Shown: one piece after another, positions 2-57,090 of the stretch
How positions within the stretch are numbered: position 1 is the stretch's first letter
How the letters are laid out: every line of letters starts with the position of its first letter
Sequence record: PZ357121.2
Reading direction: 5' to 3' (one strand)
Source of the DNA: a phage
Length of the DNA stretch: 64,000 nucleotides
Position numbers and translations under genes: made by a program
The notes under the pieces: generated by a model
What the model saw: the letters and a program-made list of their open reading frames with translations, nothing else
Database searches by the model: none
Told to the model about the DNA's origin: nothing

Positions 2-259
2 GTGGATAAAACGGCCAATGAATATATAATTCATTTAAGTGGCCGTCATTTCTCATCTAAATCAGAATTTGCATTTTTGCCTACAAAATCTAAGACTGCT
101 GAACTTTCTTATATGTATAGTTGTCCATACTTTAATTTGGATAACATCTATGCTGGAACTGTGACGATGTATTGGTATAAGGGGAGTAATATACTTGAGG
201 AGGATCGCTTAGCGGCTATATGCAACCAAGCGGTCCGAATACTAGGAAGGGCTAAATAA
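2..259 (+). CDS. t: holin T, C-terminal fragment (5' end upstream of window)
   Basis: Open frame enters window on + strand; TAA at 257-259 abuts convergent asiA stop; C-terminus (...YMYSCPYFNLDNIYAG...RILGRAK) matches recalled T4 holin T; t-asiA adjacency as in T4. Confidence 0.55.
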   Translation: MDKTANEYIIHLSGRHFSSKSEFAFLPTKSKTAELSYMYSCPYFNLDNIYAGTVTMYWYKGSNILEEDRLAAICNQAVRILGRAK

Positions 260-52478: not shown

Positions 52479-52949
52479 TTAATCATGTTTCCACACCCCA
52501 TCGGTATTTGACCAAAGTCGCTGATTATCTGATCCTCGCCACAGCTTTTTAGTCGGAAGATTTTTCTCATACTTCCCATCAATAATAACATCAACATATT
52601 TAAGCATTTCTAGTTGTTTAATATCTTCAAACTTATATCCTGTCCACAACCAAATGCTTTTATTGGGATAAAGATTTTTTACTGTTTGAGCAATGCAATG
52701 AATAACATCTCGGTTATCAGGATAGAGAGGGTCACCTCCGGTTATAGTTAATCCTTCTATATAATCATTATTCAAACATTCAATTAATTGTTCTAGTGTT
52801 TCACCAGTGAATGGAACACCATTTCTAGCATTCCATGTTGATTTATTATAACACCCTTCGCATTTATGCAAACAACCTGTAACGAAAAGAACGACCCTGC
52901 ATCCAGGACCATTCACAAAATCGCAAGGATAAAATCTATCATAATTCAT
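52479..52949 (-). CDS. nrdG: anaerobic ribonucleotide reductase activating protein NrdG (radical SAM, 156 aa)
   Basis: ATG ORF; N-terminal Cys cluster CLHKCEGCYN typical of RNR activases; overlaps nrdD stop. Confidence 0.9.
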   Translation of the reverse strand: MNYDRFYPCDFVNGPGCRVVLFVTGCLHKCEGCYNKSTWNARNGVPFTGETLEQLIECLNNDYIEGLTITGGDPLYPDNRDVIHCIAQTVKNLYPNKSIWLWTGYKFEDIKQLEMLKYVDVIIDGKYEKNLPTKKLWRGSDNQRLWSNTDGVWKHD

Positions 52950-54225
52950 TGGTGTTTAACCCTATGCATGATTTCTTTATTTTTACCGAGATTAAATCCG
53001 CGTTCGTTCGGATTTCCCAAATAACCACATGTTCTTCTTATTGTGTTCATCTTTTTAGGATCAGTTTCTCCACAAACTGAACAAACAAATCCGTTTTCAG
53101 TAGGAGTCATTTCATGGGTACTTCCGCATGTAAAACATTTATCTACTGGCATATTAACACCAAAATAATCTAAATGTTGTGCAGCATAATCCCATACGGC
53201 CTCAAGACCTTTTAGGTTATTTTTCATATCAGGAAGTTCAACATAAGAAATGTGACCGCCGGTCGCTATGAAATGATATGGCGCTTCACGAGAAATCTTT
53301 TCAAACGGAGTAATATTTTCTTCTACTGAAACGTGGAAACTGTTAGTGTACCAGCCTTTATCGGTAACATCCTTTACACTTCCATATTTTTCTGTATCGA
53401 GTTTACAGAAGCGATAACAAAGGTTTTCAGCAGGAGTCGAATATAAACTAAAAGCAAAACCGGTTCTTTCAGTCCACTGCTTAAGATGAGCATTCATTTT
53501 AGTTAAAATTTCTTGTCCAATATCACGACCGACAAGAATATTCAATTCGTGAATACCAATGTATCCTAAGGACACTGAACTTCTACCGTTTTTAAATAAC
53601 TCAATTATATCGTCATCAGGTTTAAGACGAACCCCGAATGCACCTTCTTGGTAAAGAATAGGAGCAACAGTCGCTTTAACACCCTTTAAAGAACTAATTC
53701 TACACATCAAGGCTTCAAAACACAGATCCATTCGTTCATTAAACAACTCGATAAATTTCTGTTCATTGAACTGTGTTCCAATATAAGAATCTAATGCGAT
53801 GCGAGGAAGATTCAGCGTTACAACACCGAGATTATTACGTCCATCAAGAATTTCATTACCAGTCGAATCTTTCCATACGCTCAAGAAACTACGGCAACCC
53901 ATTGGAGAAACTGGAACTGAAGAACCGGTAATAGCTTTATTATTCTTAACCGAAATAATGTCAGGATACATTCTTTTGCTTGCGCATTCTAACGCAAGTT
54001 GTTTAATATCATAGTTCGGATCATCTTTATAAAGATTAACACCTTCTTCAACAAACATAACAAGTTTAGGAAAAATAGGAGTTATTCCATCACGACCAAG
54101 ACCTTTAATGCGGTTTTTAAGAATTGCCTTCTGAATAATTCGTTCAGTCCAGTCAATTCCCGTACCAAATGTAATTGTCACAAAAGGCGTTTGTCCATTA
54201 GAGCTGAAAAGTGTATTTACTTCAT
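52946..54225 (-). CDS. nrdD: anaerobic ribonucleotide reductase NrdD, exon 2
   Basis: Reading frame continues NrdD (...EVNTLFSSNGQTPF...) to the glycyl-radical C-terminus; 3' splice site placed after intron-terminal G so that exon1 T + AT GAA GTA gives ...QAYEYEVNTLF; spliced product 605 aa as T4 NrdD. Confidence 0.8.
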
Positions 54226-55270
54226 CATTATATTCAGCATGAGTCGCAAATTCATGCCCGTTTATATGAAACAACAAAATTTGGATAGTCCATAGATATG
54301 CAACGTTCTTTTATAGTGCTAGGATGAAAATTTAGCGCTTTAGCTGCTTCTATATAAGACGTATACTTAATACCGTCAACAACCACATATTCAGGAACTT
54401 TATGAATAGTAGTCTTAATACTCAAAACAAGAGGATGAGTTTCGACTTCACTTTCAGTGCAATTTAAATATTCCGCTGCTTTTTTAAAACTTCTAAAAGT
54501 TTTATTTTTAAGCTTTATCGATACTTGTTTTTTACTTTTTCGACTATTGATATTATTTTGCACATGTTCCTTAGATCTTCCGTTTTTAGCATAATATTCA
54601 GCTACAGAAGATTTTATATTGTTTTTATGAGATTCGGATAACACTTTACCCTTATGAGCATCTCTTAATTTTTGAATATGTTCTTCAGTATCCGGATGCT
54701 TATAAAACTTTTTACCGCCTATGGATTTATTTAAACATTTTTTGCTATAAAAATATTTACGTATGACCTCTTCTTCATGTTTTAATGCATCTTTATAACT
54801 ATCAAATGTTTTTAAAATTATCCATTTAGTAGGTGTATCAGTTTTTAAGCGTTCATTTATATACTTAGATGACGTTGTGTAAGTTTTCCAGTTTGTGGGC
54901 TTGTTTTTAATTGTTCTAAATTTTTTATAACCGATATAAATGTCACCATTAGAAAACTTAACTAAGTATGTAAATGCGTCTTTATCTTTTATTTTAGTAC
55001 AACGTCTTTTTATCCATTTCATTGTTTCACCTCGTATTCATAAGATAATCTTATTTATACAAGATGACTGCTGCATGTCGCCATGCAGATTAGACTATAT
55101 CTTCATCTTTCGATGCCGGCCGTTTCGAATAGCATTAGCTTCTATTCTACACCGCTACATTCATCACGGTTAGTCGTTAGGCATTTAGTTCAAAAGAACA
55201 TTTAGCACGGGATTGTCTACTAGAGAGGTTCCCCGTTTAGACCGGTTTTACATGAGCCTGAATTAAATTA
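54226..55270 (-). mobile_element. group I self-splicing intron (nrdD/sunY-type) carrying a homing endonuclease ORF
   Basis: Interrupts nrdD reading frame; 5' intron sequence ...TAAACGGGGAACCTCTCTAGTAGACAATCCCGTGCTAAA... matches recalled T4 sunY intron core; exon 1 ends in U, intron ends in G. Confidence 0.8.
54252..55022 (-). CDS. GIY-YIG homing endonuclease, I-TevII-like (256 aa), intron-encoded
   Basis: ATG ORF inside the intron; N-terminal GDIYIGY...KF GIY-YIG motif; basic C-terminal DNA-binding region. Confidence 0.8.
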   Translation of the reverse strand: MKWIKRRCTKIKDKDAFTYLVKFSNGDIYIGYKKFRTIKNKPTNWKTYTTSSKYINERLKTDTPTKWIILKTFDSYKDALKHEEEVIRKYFYSKKCLNKSIGGKKFYKHPDTEEHIQKLRDAHKGKVLSESHKNNIKSSVAEYYAKNGRSKEHVQNNINSRKSKKQVSIKLKNKTFRSFKKAAEYLNCTESEVETHPLVLSIKTTIHKVPEYVVVDGIKYTSYIEAAKALNFHPSTIKERCISMDYPNFVVSYKRA

Positions 55271-55808
55271 ACTCATACGCCTGGAATGCATCGTATACGT
55301 CTTTTTCTGTTTTAGATTGGGCATAATTCAACGCATCAGCGATTTGCCATTTTTCTGCATCCTCAATATGTTTTGCATAGGTGCGTTTAACATAAGGAGA
55401 AAGAACTTTATCGACATTCGCAAATGTAGTTCCACCATACTGATGCGAAGCAACTTGTGCAGTAATTTGTGCCATAATTGCAGTAGCAACACCAATAGAT
55501 TTAGGCGTTTCAATTTGAGCATTGCCGAGCTTAAATCCGTTTTCAAGCATTCCTTTTAAATCTACTAAACAGCAATTAGTAAAAGGCAATGATATACTGT
55601 AATCTAAATCATGAAAATGAATTAATCCAACATTATGGGCATTTACAATATGACTTGGAAGAATACGACAAGCGATATGTTTAGAAACAATACCGGCCAT
55701 TAAATCTCTTTTTGTTGGAAAGACGCGAGAATCTTTGTTGGCGTTTTCTGTATTTAATTCTTTATCTTTATTTGAAATAAAATTTAAAACATCTTTTTCT
55801 AAAGACAT
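55271..55808 (-). CDS. nrdD: anaerobic ribonucleotide reductase NrdD, exon 1
   Basis: ATG ORF; MSLEKDVLNF...NENANKDSRVFPTKRDLMAGIVSKHIA...CCLVDLKGMLENGFKLGNAQIETPKSIGVATAIMAQI... matches recalled T4 NrdD N-terminus; frame ends in intron stop. Confidence 0.85.
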
Positions 55809-56620
55809 AATTCTAATTTATCCTTTTGAAATTCTTCGTCTAAATATGGGTTCCAACCCATTTTAAACCTTTTGATGAAATTATCAATTCTAAATTTCGG
55901 TAAGTTTAAATCCGCAAAAATAGATGATTTACTTTTAAAATCTGGACTTAAATAATCATATAAAATTTCTGCGTATTTTAACCATAATATACAAGTACCA
56001 GATTTAATTGCTCTCGGAGTTTTCCAAGGTTTTACACCATACATCGGATTTCCACTTCCTTTATGCCTGATAGAAGATGAAATTCCAATTTTAATTTTAG
56101 CTTCCTTTGTATGCGAAAATCCACGATGTGGATTTTCTTTCCAGTATTTTTTAGAAGCTTCTGATATTTTCTTTCTGGCTAAATTAGTATGATGCTTTCC
56201 ATAAAATCCATGATTTTTGCCTTTATTACGATTTCTTTTAATCATGGTTATTGATTGCTTTTCTCTAGTTTCTTTAGAAGGAGAAATACCATATGTCGTA
56301 AATTGGCCATCAGCATATGCTAAATTAAAATACTCTTTATTCCATACATCTTTTTCTATATTCTTTTGAAATTCAGCTTCAATGCTAGTTATTTGTTCAT
56401 CTCCGACTAATTGAAAATATAATATCTCAACTTTCGGCGTTTCTTTCAATAAGGCTTTTTGAAATTCGGAAGATGACGAAGACGAATAATAAAATTTACC
56501 ATTTTTATCAATAATATTCGTTCCGTCAAAAGTGCAATTGGTTTTACTTCCAATGTAATAATATGGCGGGGTTTTAGCATTAATTCTACTAATAAACGAT
56601 AGTTTATATACTACATTCAT
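55799..56620 (-). CDS. free-standing GIY-YIG homing endonuclease, Seg-like (273 aa)
   Basis: ATG ORF; N-terminal YYYIGSKT...(GIY-YIG-type) and repeated basic helix (NUMOD-like) segments; inserted between 49 and nrdD. Confidence 0.7.
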   Translation of the reverse strand: MNVVYKLSFISRINAKTPPYYYIGSKTNCTFDGTNIIDKNGKFYYSSSSSSEFQKALLKETPKVEILYFQLVGDEQITSIEAEFQKNIEKDVWNKEYFNLAYADGQFTTYGISPSKETREKQSITMIKRNRNKGKNHGFYGKHHTNLARKKISEASKKYWKENPHRGFSHTKEAKIKIGISSSIRHKGSGNPMYGVKPWKTPRAIKSGTCILWLKYAEILYDYLSPDFKSKSSIFADLNLPKFRIDNFIKRFKMGWNPYLDEEFQKDKLELCL

Positions 56621-57090
56621 TTTAAACTCTTTCTAAGCTGCTTTTTGAATGAAGCTATTAATTGTGTTTTAGTATCAGATTCATTATATTCAAATCCTCT
56701 TTGAAGCATCTCGGCCATCATTTCCTCTTTACCTAGTCTCGAGAACTCTTTAGTTTTGTCTGGAACAAAATTAGGATGGATATTATTATCAGAATAATCT
56801 TGTTTCAAATAAGCAAGAAGAGCTTCAAGCCATTCGAGGTAGTTGACATCACGGCCTTTAAGACCGGAACGGTTGAACTTATGCTTCATTTGACCTTCTG
56901 CTGCGTTGCACAGATTACAGAGTAACCCACGAACTCTACCGGCTTTTGGCCCGTTTAATTCGTGGTCGTGGTCAAGATGGTTACCTTGAACATCAGGGTC
57001 TAATTCACGGTGGCAAATAGGACACTTACCGTTCTGTGCATCATAAAATTTTTGTTTTTCTTCTTTATATTTTGCGCCTGATAATAACAT
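56617..57090 (-). CDS. 49: recombination endonuclease VII gp49 (157 aa)
   Basis: ATG ORF; ...KQKFYDAQNGKCPICHRELDPDVQGNHLDHDHELNGPKAGRVRGLLCNLCNAAEGQMKHKFNRSGLKG... near-identical to recalled T4 endo VII. Confidence 0.95.
   Translation of the reverse strand: MLLSGAKYKEEKQKFYDAQNGKCPICHRELDPDVQGNHLDHDHELNGPKAGRVRGLLCNLCNAAEGQMKHKFNRSGLKGRDVNYLEWLEALLAYLKQDYSDNNIHPNFVPDKTKEFSRLGKEEMMAEMLQRGFEYNESDTKTQLIASFKKQLRKSLK

Follow-up and report, generated by a model that had tools for sequence, protein, structure and literature searches.

The window, a 64,000-nucleotide stretch of phage DNA (sequence record PZ357121.2), carries on its minus strand the gene for the large subunit of the class III anaerobic ribonucleotide reductase, nrdD, which is dispensable in aerobic laboratory growth. 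The gene is laid out as two exons separated by a 1,045-nt intervening sequence (Table 1). Exon 1 opens at an ATG (55808), reads to ...DAFQAYE, and then continues as LI and a stop codon into the intervening sequence; its 3' end is the splice-site U at 55271, and its final 7 nt are UAUGAGU. Joining the exons after that U and after the terminal G of the intervening sequence would yield 538 + 1,280 nt, that is, a coding sequence of 1,818 nt encoding 605 amino acids plus a stop codon, and the predicted exon-exon junction reads ...GCGUAUGAGU followed directly by AUGAAGUAAAU. NrdD has this same length in T4 (spliced) and in RB69 (intronless), and the three proteins align without gaps. Beyond residue 75, the spliced window protein is 98.5 to 98.9% identical to the NrdD proteins of T4 and RB69. 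Downstream of nrdD, nrdG is intact. The first-pass annotation of this DNA had the NrdD frame stopping after ...QAYE and resuming 1,045 nt further on, all of its coordinates being correct, and its prediction that U/G splicing restores a protein of the T4 NrdD length is borne out by the joined coding sequence and the ungapped alignment. We infer the junctions, and splicing at them, from the DNA.

In the deposited records that we inspected, the locus is entered as a "homing endonuclease" plus a pair of fragments labelled "nrdD" rather than as one spliced 605-aa gene, and the present analysis corrects that annotation. Taken at face value, two separate nrdD coding sequences with a homing endonuclease between them would mean that an endonuclease cassette had split nrdD into two polypeptides that are translated separately and then assemble, with no splicing. 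NrdA of Aeromonas phage Aeh1 is a precedent for a reductase that stays functional although its gene is split, according to the passage of PMC10448857 that cites Friedrich et al. We consider such an arrangement highly improbable here, as the junction splits a codon after its first base (538 = 179 × 3 + 1) and a start codon is absent where NrdD homology resumes (the in-frame TTG chosen by the ORF finder falls inside the intron). Moreover, a complete ribozyme with covariation support lies between the two nrdD pieces, derivatives without the ORF still hold that ribozyme, and the annotation of the T4 homologue, at the same site, joins two parts of the nrdD coding sequence around a group IA intron. 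Less probable still is the idea that nrdD is a decaying pseudogene whose function was lost with a junk insertion. Nothing specific speaks in its favor, whereas both exons are open, the protein is conserved beyond residue 75 to the extent given above, nrdG is intact, and the cluster of nucleotide differences at the junction is wholly synonymous.

Table 1. Features of the nrdD locus in the window (window coordinates unless intron positions are given)
Feature	Position	Strand	Remarks
nrdD exon 1	55271..55808	-	538 nt = 179 codons + base 1 of codon 180; from ORF list and sequence
nrdD exon 2	52946..54225	-	1,280 nt, stop codon included
Group I intron (predicted)	54226..55270	-	1,045 nt; insertion site is that of the T4 nrdD (sunY) intron
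Ribozyme core P1-P9	55071..55270	-	wholly 5' of the ORF; RF00028 match, all listed pairs canonical in the window
Internal guide sequence GCUCAUG	55251..55257 = intron 14-20	-	read from sequence
P3	intron 26-31/150-155	-	part of P3/P7 pseudoknot
P4	intron 35-39/60-64	-	canonical pairs in the window
P5	intron 45-47/53-55	-	canonical pairs in the window
P6	intron 65-66/89-90	-	canonical pairs in the window
P6a	intron 72-75/80-83	-	canonical pairs in the window
P7	intron 96-100/174-178	-	pseudoknot
P7.1	intron 101-104/117-120	-	canonical pairs in the window
P7.2	intron 124-129/139-144	-	canonical pairs in the window
P8	intron 156-159/164-167	-	canonical pairs in the window
P9	intron 183-189/194-200	-	canonical pairs in the window
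3'-terminal hairpin P9.2	54237..54257	-	GCAUGA-AUUUGCGAC-UCAUGC; ORF stop codon inside
Terminal G (omega G), 3' splice site	54226..54226	-	from sequence
Intron ORF, GIY-YIG/NUMOD homing endonuclease (predicted)	54252..55022	-	256 aa, stop included in coordinates; P9.1 loop region
TATAAATA, T4 late-promoter consensus	55052..55059	-	ends 29 nt upstream of the ORF ATG
RBS hairpin	55027..55067	-	3' arm AUACGAGGUGA holds the Shine-Dalgarno sequence of the ORF
Upstream co-conversion tract (candidate)	55271..55286	-	last 16 nt of exon 1, identical to SYGD1; RB69 differs at -11, -8, -2
Downstream co-conversion tract (candidate)	54180..54225	-	first 46 nt of exon 2, identical to SYGD1; six synonymous RB69 differences, +14 to +29

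Structure of the ribozyme

The intervening sequence was compared with covariance model RF00028 using a 1.3-kb slice of the window (54100 to 55400). The match spans 55306 to 55071 on the minus strand and scores 70.6 bits (gathering score, 50; E = 1.4e-17), with model positions 1 to 253 all matched; under the same conditions, the T4 nrdD intron scores 105.3 bits. Rfam scans of the whole window, at both thresholds, did not report the intron. Because the slice score clears the family cutoff, this miss presumably reflects a loss at the speed filter, and we rejected the blank whole-window result as proof of absence.

P1 would form between exon-1 UAUGAGU and intron GCUCAUG, giving seven pairs with a terminal U·G at the splice site. 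In addition, a candidate P10, as judged by sequence, could pair intron UUCA (positions 9 to 12) with exon-2 UGAA (+2 to +5). We assessed covariation on a structure of 13 helices and 59 pairs, with P7 entered as a pseudoknot, over seven aligned IA-type introns from phages. Across these introns, 93.8% of the cells were paired, compared with 35 to 40% when the partners were slid, and compensatory (both-side) changes occurred at 28 of the 59 pairs, compared with 3 to 10 for slid partners; none of 500 shuffles attained any of five measures of structure support. P1 was paired in 81% across the family, the misses being two td introns that have other sequence aligned there. P7.1 and P7.2, which lie between P7 and the 3' strand of P3, were 100% and 82% paired and contained 3 and 4 compensatory pairs, respectively. 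Helix 13 of the structure, P9.2, is kept in both of the ORF-deleted derivatives described below, and the intron end ...AUG is kept in six of the seven aligned introns, the six with assigned boundaries (all but 4L372D). A scan returned a single "terminator", a plus-strand hit that corresponds to P9.2 in reverse complement.

The score above the RF00028 cutoff, together with the covariation over seven related introns, upholds the original assignment to group I. By its predicted secondary structure, which has both P7.1 and P7.2, the intron is of the subgroup IA2 type, and we predict that it is a guanosine-dependent self-splicing group I intron.

The intron ORF and its expression signals

From the stop codon of the 256-aa intron ORF, 26 nt (54251 to 54226) remain to the intron 3' end. 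Aligned over its full length with T4 I-TevII, the ORF product is identical at 144 of 257 residues (56%; E = 1e-101). It matches phrog_314 "homing endonuclease" (3.6e-29) and Pfam family PF07453 NUMOD1 (25.3 bits; cutoff, 22.8) and passes marginally for PF19835 SegE_GIY-YIG (26.6 bits; cutoff, 25); NCBIfam and a PDB sequence search returned nothing for this ORF. In the alignment, the ORF product shares with I-TevII, without a difference, the FTY...YIG motif and the stretches HEE and LNKSIGG, and we infer catalytic roles for them. By sequence likeness, therefore, the ORF is an I-TevII orthologue and a predicted GIY-YIG homing endonuclease; the first-pass annotation had the ORF type, its length, and its distance from the 3' splice site right.

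The octamer TATAAATA, which is the T4 late-promoter consensus, has only three copies in the 64 kb, one of which is the intron copy upstream of this ORF. That copy sits in the 5' arm and loop of the RBS hairpin, for which the calculated fold has a free energy of -17.8 kcal/mol (z = -4.55), with none of 200 shuffles equally stable. ATCTTATGAATACGAGGTGA is a putative operator. A control logic combining a hairpin with a late promoter has been described for I-TevI and I-TevII as well as I-TevIII (PMC2988022), and by analogy TATAAATA probably acts as a late promoter here. In early transcripts, the hairpin would hide the endonuclease ORF's ribosome-binding site. Late transcripts would be without the 5' arm of the hairpin, since the promoter sits in that arm and the loop; transcripts from TATAAATA would thus expose the ribosome-binding site, and the endonuclease would be produced at late times, like its T4 counterpart. 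A sigma-70 promoter scan found 12 sites where 13.7 were expected, which is chance level, and this promoter type is not that of T4-like late genes.

Comparison with the T4 nrdD intron

The T4 nrdD (sunY) intron, whose splicing is established, shares its host gene and its site with the window intron, both lying directly 3' of coding-sequence nucleotide 538 (Glu179/codon 180). The two introns also share their layout, in which the core is followed by an ORF in the 3' part whose end falls a few nucleotides ahead of a terminal hairpin. The guide sequence (GCUCAUG) is nearly identical, and TATAAATA, at the same place in T4, is common to both along with the apparent RBS-hairpin control. The window intron measures 1,045 nt and the T4 intron 1,033 nt; their endonucleases have 256 and 258 aa, respectively, and are 56% identical.

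At the DNA level, however, identity to the T4 intron is 64% overall and ~74% in the core, far below that of the surrounding nrdD exons (~80% for exon 1 and 94% for exon 2). The P3, P6a, P7.1, P7.2, P8, and P9.2 stems differ between the two introns through compensatory changes. The T4 terminal stem (GUAGAG/CUCUAC) and the window P9.2 differ on both sides at four of six pairs, and the closing helix of T4 P9.1 (GUUUAU/AUAAAC) has no obvious counterpart in the window intron. We rejected the possibility that the window simply holds the T4 intron, as a megablast search with the window intron reaches T4 over only 42 nt, and these lie in td; the reverse search, with the T4 nrdD intron as the query, returned 27 other records, the window allele not among them. 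The claim that the intron matches the T4 sunY core thus stands with respect to homology and fails as a near-match, given the alignment identities above. On these comparisons, the window intron is a distinct allele, a diverged sister of the T4 nrdD intron.

Distribution and mobility

The window intron allele occurs in 44 phage records at 99.3 to 100% identity, on backbones of both the T4 type and the RB69 type, and its match to the intron in phage SYGD1 is 100%. The greater part of the T4-type allele is present in 25 records, and any match to it is found in 27, fewer than the 44 of the window allele. The nrdD-intron carriers number ~70 altogether. The window intron is therefore no rarity; it is a known kind of element, already in dozens of sequenced phages. 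Literature searches found no description of this nrdD intron allele, which is not proof of absence. Among 50,697 phage records, there were no intermediates between the two endonuclease alleles, every identity being 95% or higher, or else 57% or lower. In 41 records, the window-type ORF is uninterrupted, with an identity of 99% or more. In two natural derivatives, deletion between short direct repeats has taken out 566 and 700 nt of ORF sequence, while the core and the 3' end remain; the natural intron of BYEP01 is 345 nt long. Two records match the ORF only as two separate pieces (96% identity), which suggests that the frame is disrupted in them. These ORF-deleted and apparently disrupted copies would represent the decay stage of the homing cycle.

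GenBank genus labels were an unreliable guide to backbones (phage F2 is labelled Tequatrovirus yet matches the RB69-like window at 98%), so we compared the window directly with RB69 and T4. The flanks of the intron are 95 to 98% identical to RB69 and ~80% identical to T4, and the RB69 alignment is interrupted exactly at both intron boundaries. The first-pass annotation called RB69 intron-poor, and RB69 nrdD is an uninterrupted gene of 1,818 nt; ST0 is a further intronless Mosigvirus. SYGD1 is a carrier on a different, more T4-like backbone. Between the window and SYGD1 there are 0 differences over 1,107 nt, comprising the intron with 16 nt upstream and 46 nt downstream, whereas the rest of nrdD diverges by ~8% and the neighboring genes are 81 to 89% identical. 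Against RB69, the window shows nine differences grouped at -11 to +29, every one of them silent at the protein level, and a single differing position in exon 2 from +99 to +313. At -2, all five alleles with an intron in the comparison (window, SYGD1, 215Ecol030PP, BYEP01, and T4) have a G. Intronless RB69 has an A at this position instead, and its exon would therefore mismatch the guide sequence.

An SYGD1-identical tract of 1,107 nt within an otherwise divergent nrdD suggests that homing took place recently and that co-conversion was short. The initial suggestion of a mobile-element gain in an RB69-type backbone is supported by this signature and by the RB69-like flanks. In principle, the same tract could also have been transferred by ordinary homologous recombination, with no cleavage involved. 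Extended to the whole history of the allele, such recombination within the conserved nrdD gene would account for the spread of an intron that splices and yet is immobile, its endonuclease being inactive or irrelevant. The nrdD exons are 90 to 94% identical even between T4 and RB69, and so general recombination has ample homology to act on; endonuclease activity is a prediction, and copies with the ORF deleted or apparently disrupted do occur. Endonuclease genes of T-even introns reportedly decay fast, as Sandegren and Sjöberg are said to have found in 2004. We nevertheless regard an immobile intron as improbable. The 41 intact and nearly identical ORFs argue against it, as does full-length similarity to an active enzyme, I-TevII, with the expression signals kept. 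Furthermore, imported exon sequence is confined to a very short tract (-16 to +46) with the insertion site at its center, which argues for break-initiated repair rather than random crossovers.

We therefore favor mobility and conclude that the window nrdD very probably holds a self-splicing, mobile group I intron with an I-TevII orthologue, at the T4 sunY site. The nrdD pre-mRNA would splice itself by two guanosine-initiated transesterifications, and the phage would therefore retain a working reductase. During mixed infection, the endonuclease would cut intronless nrdD near the insertion site, and repair from the intron-bearing genome would copy the intron along with a few tens of adjoining exon bases. 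The outcome in the window would be what is seen, an RB69-type genome with an SYGD1-identical intron and a short imported exon tract. Knowledge of how such mobile introns work is unchanged by this example. Its value lies in an unusually clean natural record of homing, with an intron-free recipient of the RB69 type, a long tract shared with another carrier, a footprint of -16/+46, and ORF-deleted descendants. Moreover, a pair of discrete alleles that share a site (56% identical in protein, with no intermediates) could be used to ask how endonuclease specificity drifts, whether the alleles exclude each other, and whether ribozyme domains swap between introns in nature.

Relationships to other phage introns

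The closest relatives of the window intron vary by module. P1 and the 3' tail are of the nrdD type, P3 to P6a are of the td type, and P7 to P7.2 resemble those of nrdD introns from Vequintavirinae and of the terL intron in Aeromonas phage 4L372D. In the td-type part, intron positions 30 to 71 of the window are identical to T4 td; as read off the alignment, this P4-P5 segment agrees at 42 of 42 positions, compared with 33 of 42 for T4 nrdD against td. In SEA1 (Gelderlandvirus), the td intron has no ORF and is 89% identical to the window intron across the P3-P6a domain, whereas the P7.1-P7.2 region of td introns is only 43 to 46% identical. The nrdD introns of Vequintavirinae and related phages (VB-EcoM-WM and TH18) show 76 to 82% identity over 88% of the core, and the 4L372D terL intron shows 73% identity over 84% of the core. 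The P7.1 hairpin ACCGUGAUGAAUGUAGCGGU of the window is identical in WM and 4L372D, and the likeness extends to the P9.2 loop and 3' tail.

Because each ribozyme module has a different closest relative, these likenesses can be read as module shuffling. A tentative extension of that reading, which we put forward as possible rather than probable, is that the window represents a second, long-separated lineage of nrdD intron and endonuclease whose modules were shuffled among phage introns and whose endonuclease has a shifted target preference. If so, the shifted preference would permit invasion of RB69-type nrdD, possibly rivalling or replacing the T4 allele at the site, and the two alleles would form a natural system for the co-evolution of endonuclease specificity and ribozyme modules. 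In the laboratory, ribozyme domains of the T4 td and nrdD introns are said to have been exchanged by Bryk and Belfort in 1990.

The related introns differ from the window intron in other respects. The td introns of T4 and SEA1 share the IA-type fold and differ in host gene and guide sequence; td introns possess P2 and carry their ORF (I-TevI) in P6a. We rejected the Vequintavirinae nrdD introns as occupants of the window site, as they are inserted at ...SMG/CRSF, at about residue 290 in window numbering. Of these, the WM intron carries an HNH endonuclease in its P6 loop, and the TH18 intron is free of any ORF.

nrdD is split by a 1045-nt intron

Read from the ATG at 55808 on the minus strand, the frame of nrdD, encoding the anaerobic ribonucleotide reductase NrdD, runs to ...DAFQAYE and meets a stop two codons into foreign sequence. 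Placing the end of exon 1 at U55271 and that of the intron at G54226 makes the intervening sequence exactly 1045 nt, and joining the exons (538 + 1280 nt) restores the reading frame, yielding a coding sequence of 1818 nt and a protein of 605 amino acids. The spliced nrdD of T4 and the uninterrupted nrdD of RB69 are also 1818 nt, and the three align without gaps. The first-pass annotation had described a halt after ...QAYE with resumption 1045 nt on, a product equal in length to T4 NrdD, and a 256-aa ORF ending 26 nt short of the 3' splice site; its coordinates were verified and all of its numbers were correct. The junction falls inside a codon, no start codon is present where NrdD homology resumes, and the ribozyme is kept even in copies that have lost the ORF; against these observations, the proposals that nrdD is a reductase encoded in pieces or a pseudogene find little support.

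Coordinates of features at the nrdD locus
Feature	Coordinates	Strand	Remark
gene 49 (endonuclease VII)	56617-57090		
Free-standing homing endonuclease gene (273 aa)	55799-56620	minus	between gene 49 and nrdD; overlaps nrdD start by 10 nt
nrdD exon 1	55808-55271	minus	
Divergent nrdD 5' tract	55584-55808	minus	first 75 codons, ~225 nt
nrdD intron	55270-54226	minus	
RF00028 match	55306-55071	minus	whole model
Hairpin	55067-55027	minus	-17.8 kcal/mol, z = -4.55; Shine-Dalgarno of ORF in 3' arm
TATAAATA	55059-55052	minus	upstream of intron ORF; 1 of only 3 copies in 64 kb
ATCTTATGAATACGAGGTGA	55023-55042	minus	20 nt before ORF ATG
Intron ORF (256 aa)	55022-54252	minus	includes stop; 26 nt left before 3' splice site
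Second long frame resuming NrdD	54277-52946	minus	from ORF reading
nrdD exon 2	54225-52946	minus	
nrdG	52479-52949		overlaps nrdD end directly (52946-52949), likewise in RB69

The intron folds as a group I ribozyme

A search of a 1.3-kb slice against Rfam matched RF00028 at 70.6 bits (E = 1.4e-17; gathering score, 50), which bears out the group I assignment; the T4 nrdD intron scored 105.3 bits under the same conditions. A cmscan of the full 64 kb gave no match at all, the nrdD intron included, with either the gathering or the E-value threshold. Because the slice match clears the RF00028 cutoff, we take this miss to be a loss at the speed filter, and since an intron of 70.6 bits was missed, negative whole-window scans cannot exclude further group I introns.

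We wrote helices P1, P3, P4, P5, P6, P6a, P7, P7.1, P7.2, P8, P9, and a 3'-terminal P9.2 for the window, in which 59 of 59 pairs are canonical. Pairs were then counted in seven related phage introns after alignment: the window intron, the nrdD introns of T4, VB-EcoM-WM, and TH18 (Vequintavirinae), the td introns of SEA1 and T4, and the terL intron of Aeromonas phage 4L372D. Cells were paired at 93.8%, versus 35 to 40% when partners were slid by 1 to 3 columns, and both sides had changed at 28 of the 59 pairs, versus 3 to 10 when slid; 0 of 500 shuffles did as well in either case, and across all five measures tested no shuffle came up to the observed figure. All cells were paired at the five pairs of the P7 pseudoknot, and an independent RNAalifold run missed only P1 and P7.2 among the nested core helices. 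These data establish the anatomy of the intron and a fold supported by covariation, and we place it in the phage-typical IA class because P7.1 and P7.2 are present. P1 pairs exon UAUGAGU with the guide GCUCAUG, with a U·G at the splice site. Position -2 (counting upstream [-] or downstream [+] of the insertion point) is G in all five intron-bearing alleles compared and A in the intronless RB69 allele, where it would mismatch the guide.

The T4 nrdD intron (1033 nt) has the same insertion site and architecture but is only 64% identical overall and ~74% in the core, versus 94% for the flanking exon 2; the proposed match to the T4 sunY core is one between homologues, not between copies of one allele. 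Identity with the T4 allele is ruled out at 64%, and megablast queried with the window intron reached T4 solely through a 42-nt perfect stretch in the td intron. The closest relatives differ by module: T4 nrdD for P1 and the guide (85%), SEA1 td for P3-P6a (89%; T4 nrdD, 69%), and 4L372D terL for P7-P7.2 (87%; WM nrdD, 83%; T4 nrdD, 65%), while in P3'-P9 the three nrdD introns are about equal (72 to 74%; T4 nrdD, 73%) and td and terL reach 59 to 67%. Such a distribution is consistent with phage introns having exchanged modules, although uneven rates of change could produce it instead.

The intron ORF resembles I-TevII

The intron ORF is identical to I-TevII, the endonuclease of the T4 nrdD intron, at 144 of 257 positions (56%), end to end (E = 1e-101). 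For Pfam SegE_GIY-YIG it is only just over the cutoff (26.6 bits; cutoff, 25); it also passes NUMOD1 and matches the PHROG family "homing endonuclease." By sequence it is an I-TevII orthologue, in keeping with its earlier description as an I-TevII-like GIY-YIG ORF. When the phage collection was searched at the protein level, two discrete alleles emerged with nothing in between, one of the window type (95% or above; ~45 records) and one at 56 to 57% (~27 records: T4, RB55, RB59, PST, fPS-2, and U5). U5, whose endonuclease is thus T4-type, was reportedly sequenced in the Sandegren studies.

The T4 intron has the same layout of TATAAATA and hairpin upstream of its ORF. The published model has the ribosome-binding site masked in early read-through transcripts and freed in late ones that begin within the hairpin (PMC2988022); by analogy, the window intron would mask its site early and release it late. 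ATCTTATGAATACGAGGTGA matches the intronless RB69 junction (AGCTTATGAA joined to TATGAAGTAA) at 16 of 20 positions, a level that 1 shuffle in 500 attains; for the T4 counterpart the figure is 14 of 20. Similarity between operator and homing site has been proposed for I-TevI/II/III (PMC2988022), and ATCTTATGAATACGAGGTGA is a possible autorepression operator, a suggestive candidate only.

The intron has moved between backbones

The window intron occurs at 99.3 to 100% identity in 44 phage records, and the T4-type intron in 25 with most of the allele and 27 with any match. The window flanks are 95 to 98% identical to RB69 versus ~80% to T4; the backbone is therefore of RB69 type, as first described, and the RB69 alignment breaks precisely at 54225/55273. 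Compared with SYGD1, which carries the same intron on a different backbone, the intron has zero differences while neighboring genes are 81 to 89% identical. The intron and its flanks from -16 to +46 form one identical tract of 1107 nt; elsewhere in nrdD, exon 1 has 27 differences in 313 positions and exon 2 has 100 in 1280. Against RB69, nine clustered differences, all synonymous, lie at -11, -8, -2, and +14 to +29, with one further difference only from +99 to +313. The transfer footprint itself is directly visible, and it is the classic one that homing with short co-conversion would leave; it upholds the claim of mobile-element gain.

The element probably works like the T4 nrdD/I-TevII intron: it would leave the transcript by self-splicing chemistry, and its endonuclease, expressed late, would cleave intronless nrdD, with repair to follow. 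That it is an immobile relic that still splices has little support. ORF deletions between short direct repeats (566 nt in 215Ecol030PP and 700 nt in BYEP01) keep the core and 3' end, and two more carriers match the ORF only as two pieces, which suggests a disrupted frame. Such copies are in the decaying stage of the homing cycle.

No description of this allele was found in the literature searched, which did not include the Sandegren papers. Dozens of publicly deposited genomes already contain the sequence, and the records inspected annotate nrdD as two fragments along with a homing endonuclease; the intron makes a neat example and usefully corrects the annotation, but is no surprise to specialists.

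Other homing genes near nrdD

NUMOD3 and phrog_7504 both match the 273-aa endonuclease, whose N-terminal part holds a GIY-YIG-like motif, YKLSF...YYIGSK. Its gene is found in ~50 phage records and is missing from T4 and RB69, in both of which gene 49 abuts nrdD. In nrdD itself, codons 1 to 75, which travel with this gene, are only 61% identical in protein and 55 to 68% in DNA to T4 and RB69; T4 and RB69 are 95% alike there, and the remainder of the window NrdD is ~99% identical. No donor was seen in the phage collection, where the next-best N-termini are 69% identical; the tract probably goes with the upstream endonuclease as a segment that was co-converted or resists cleavage. The nrdD/nrdG junction holds mobC in T4, segH in SYGD1 and F2, a segC-like gene in Lv5cm, and a NUMOD3 protein in BYEP01. 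Homing endonuclease genes have a hot spot in the nrdD neighborhood, and each phage has its own set. Genus labels in the collection are an unsafe guide to backbone type, because phage F2 (MN864145) is labeled Tequatrovirus yet, over a 24-kb stretch, matches the RB69-like window at 98%.
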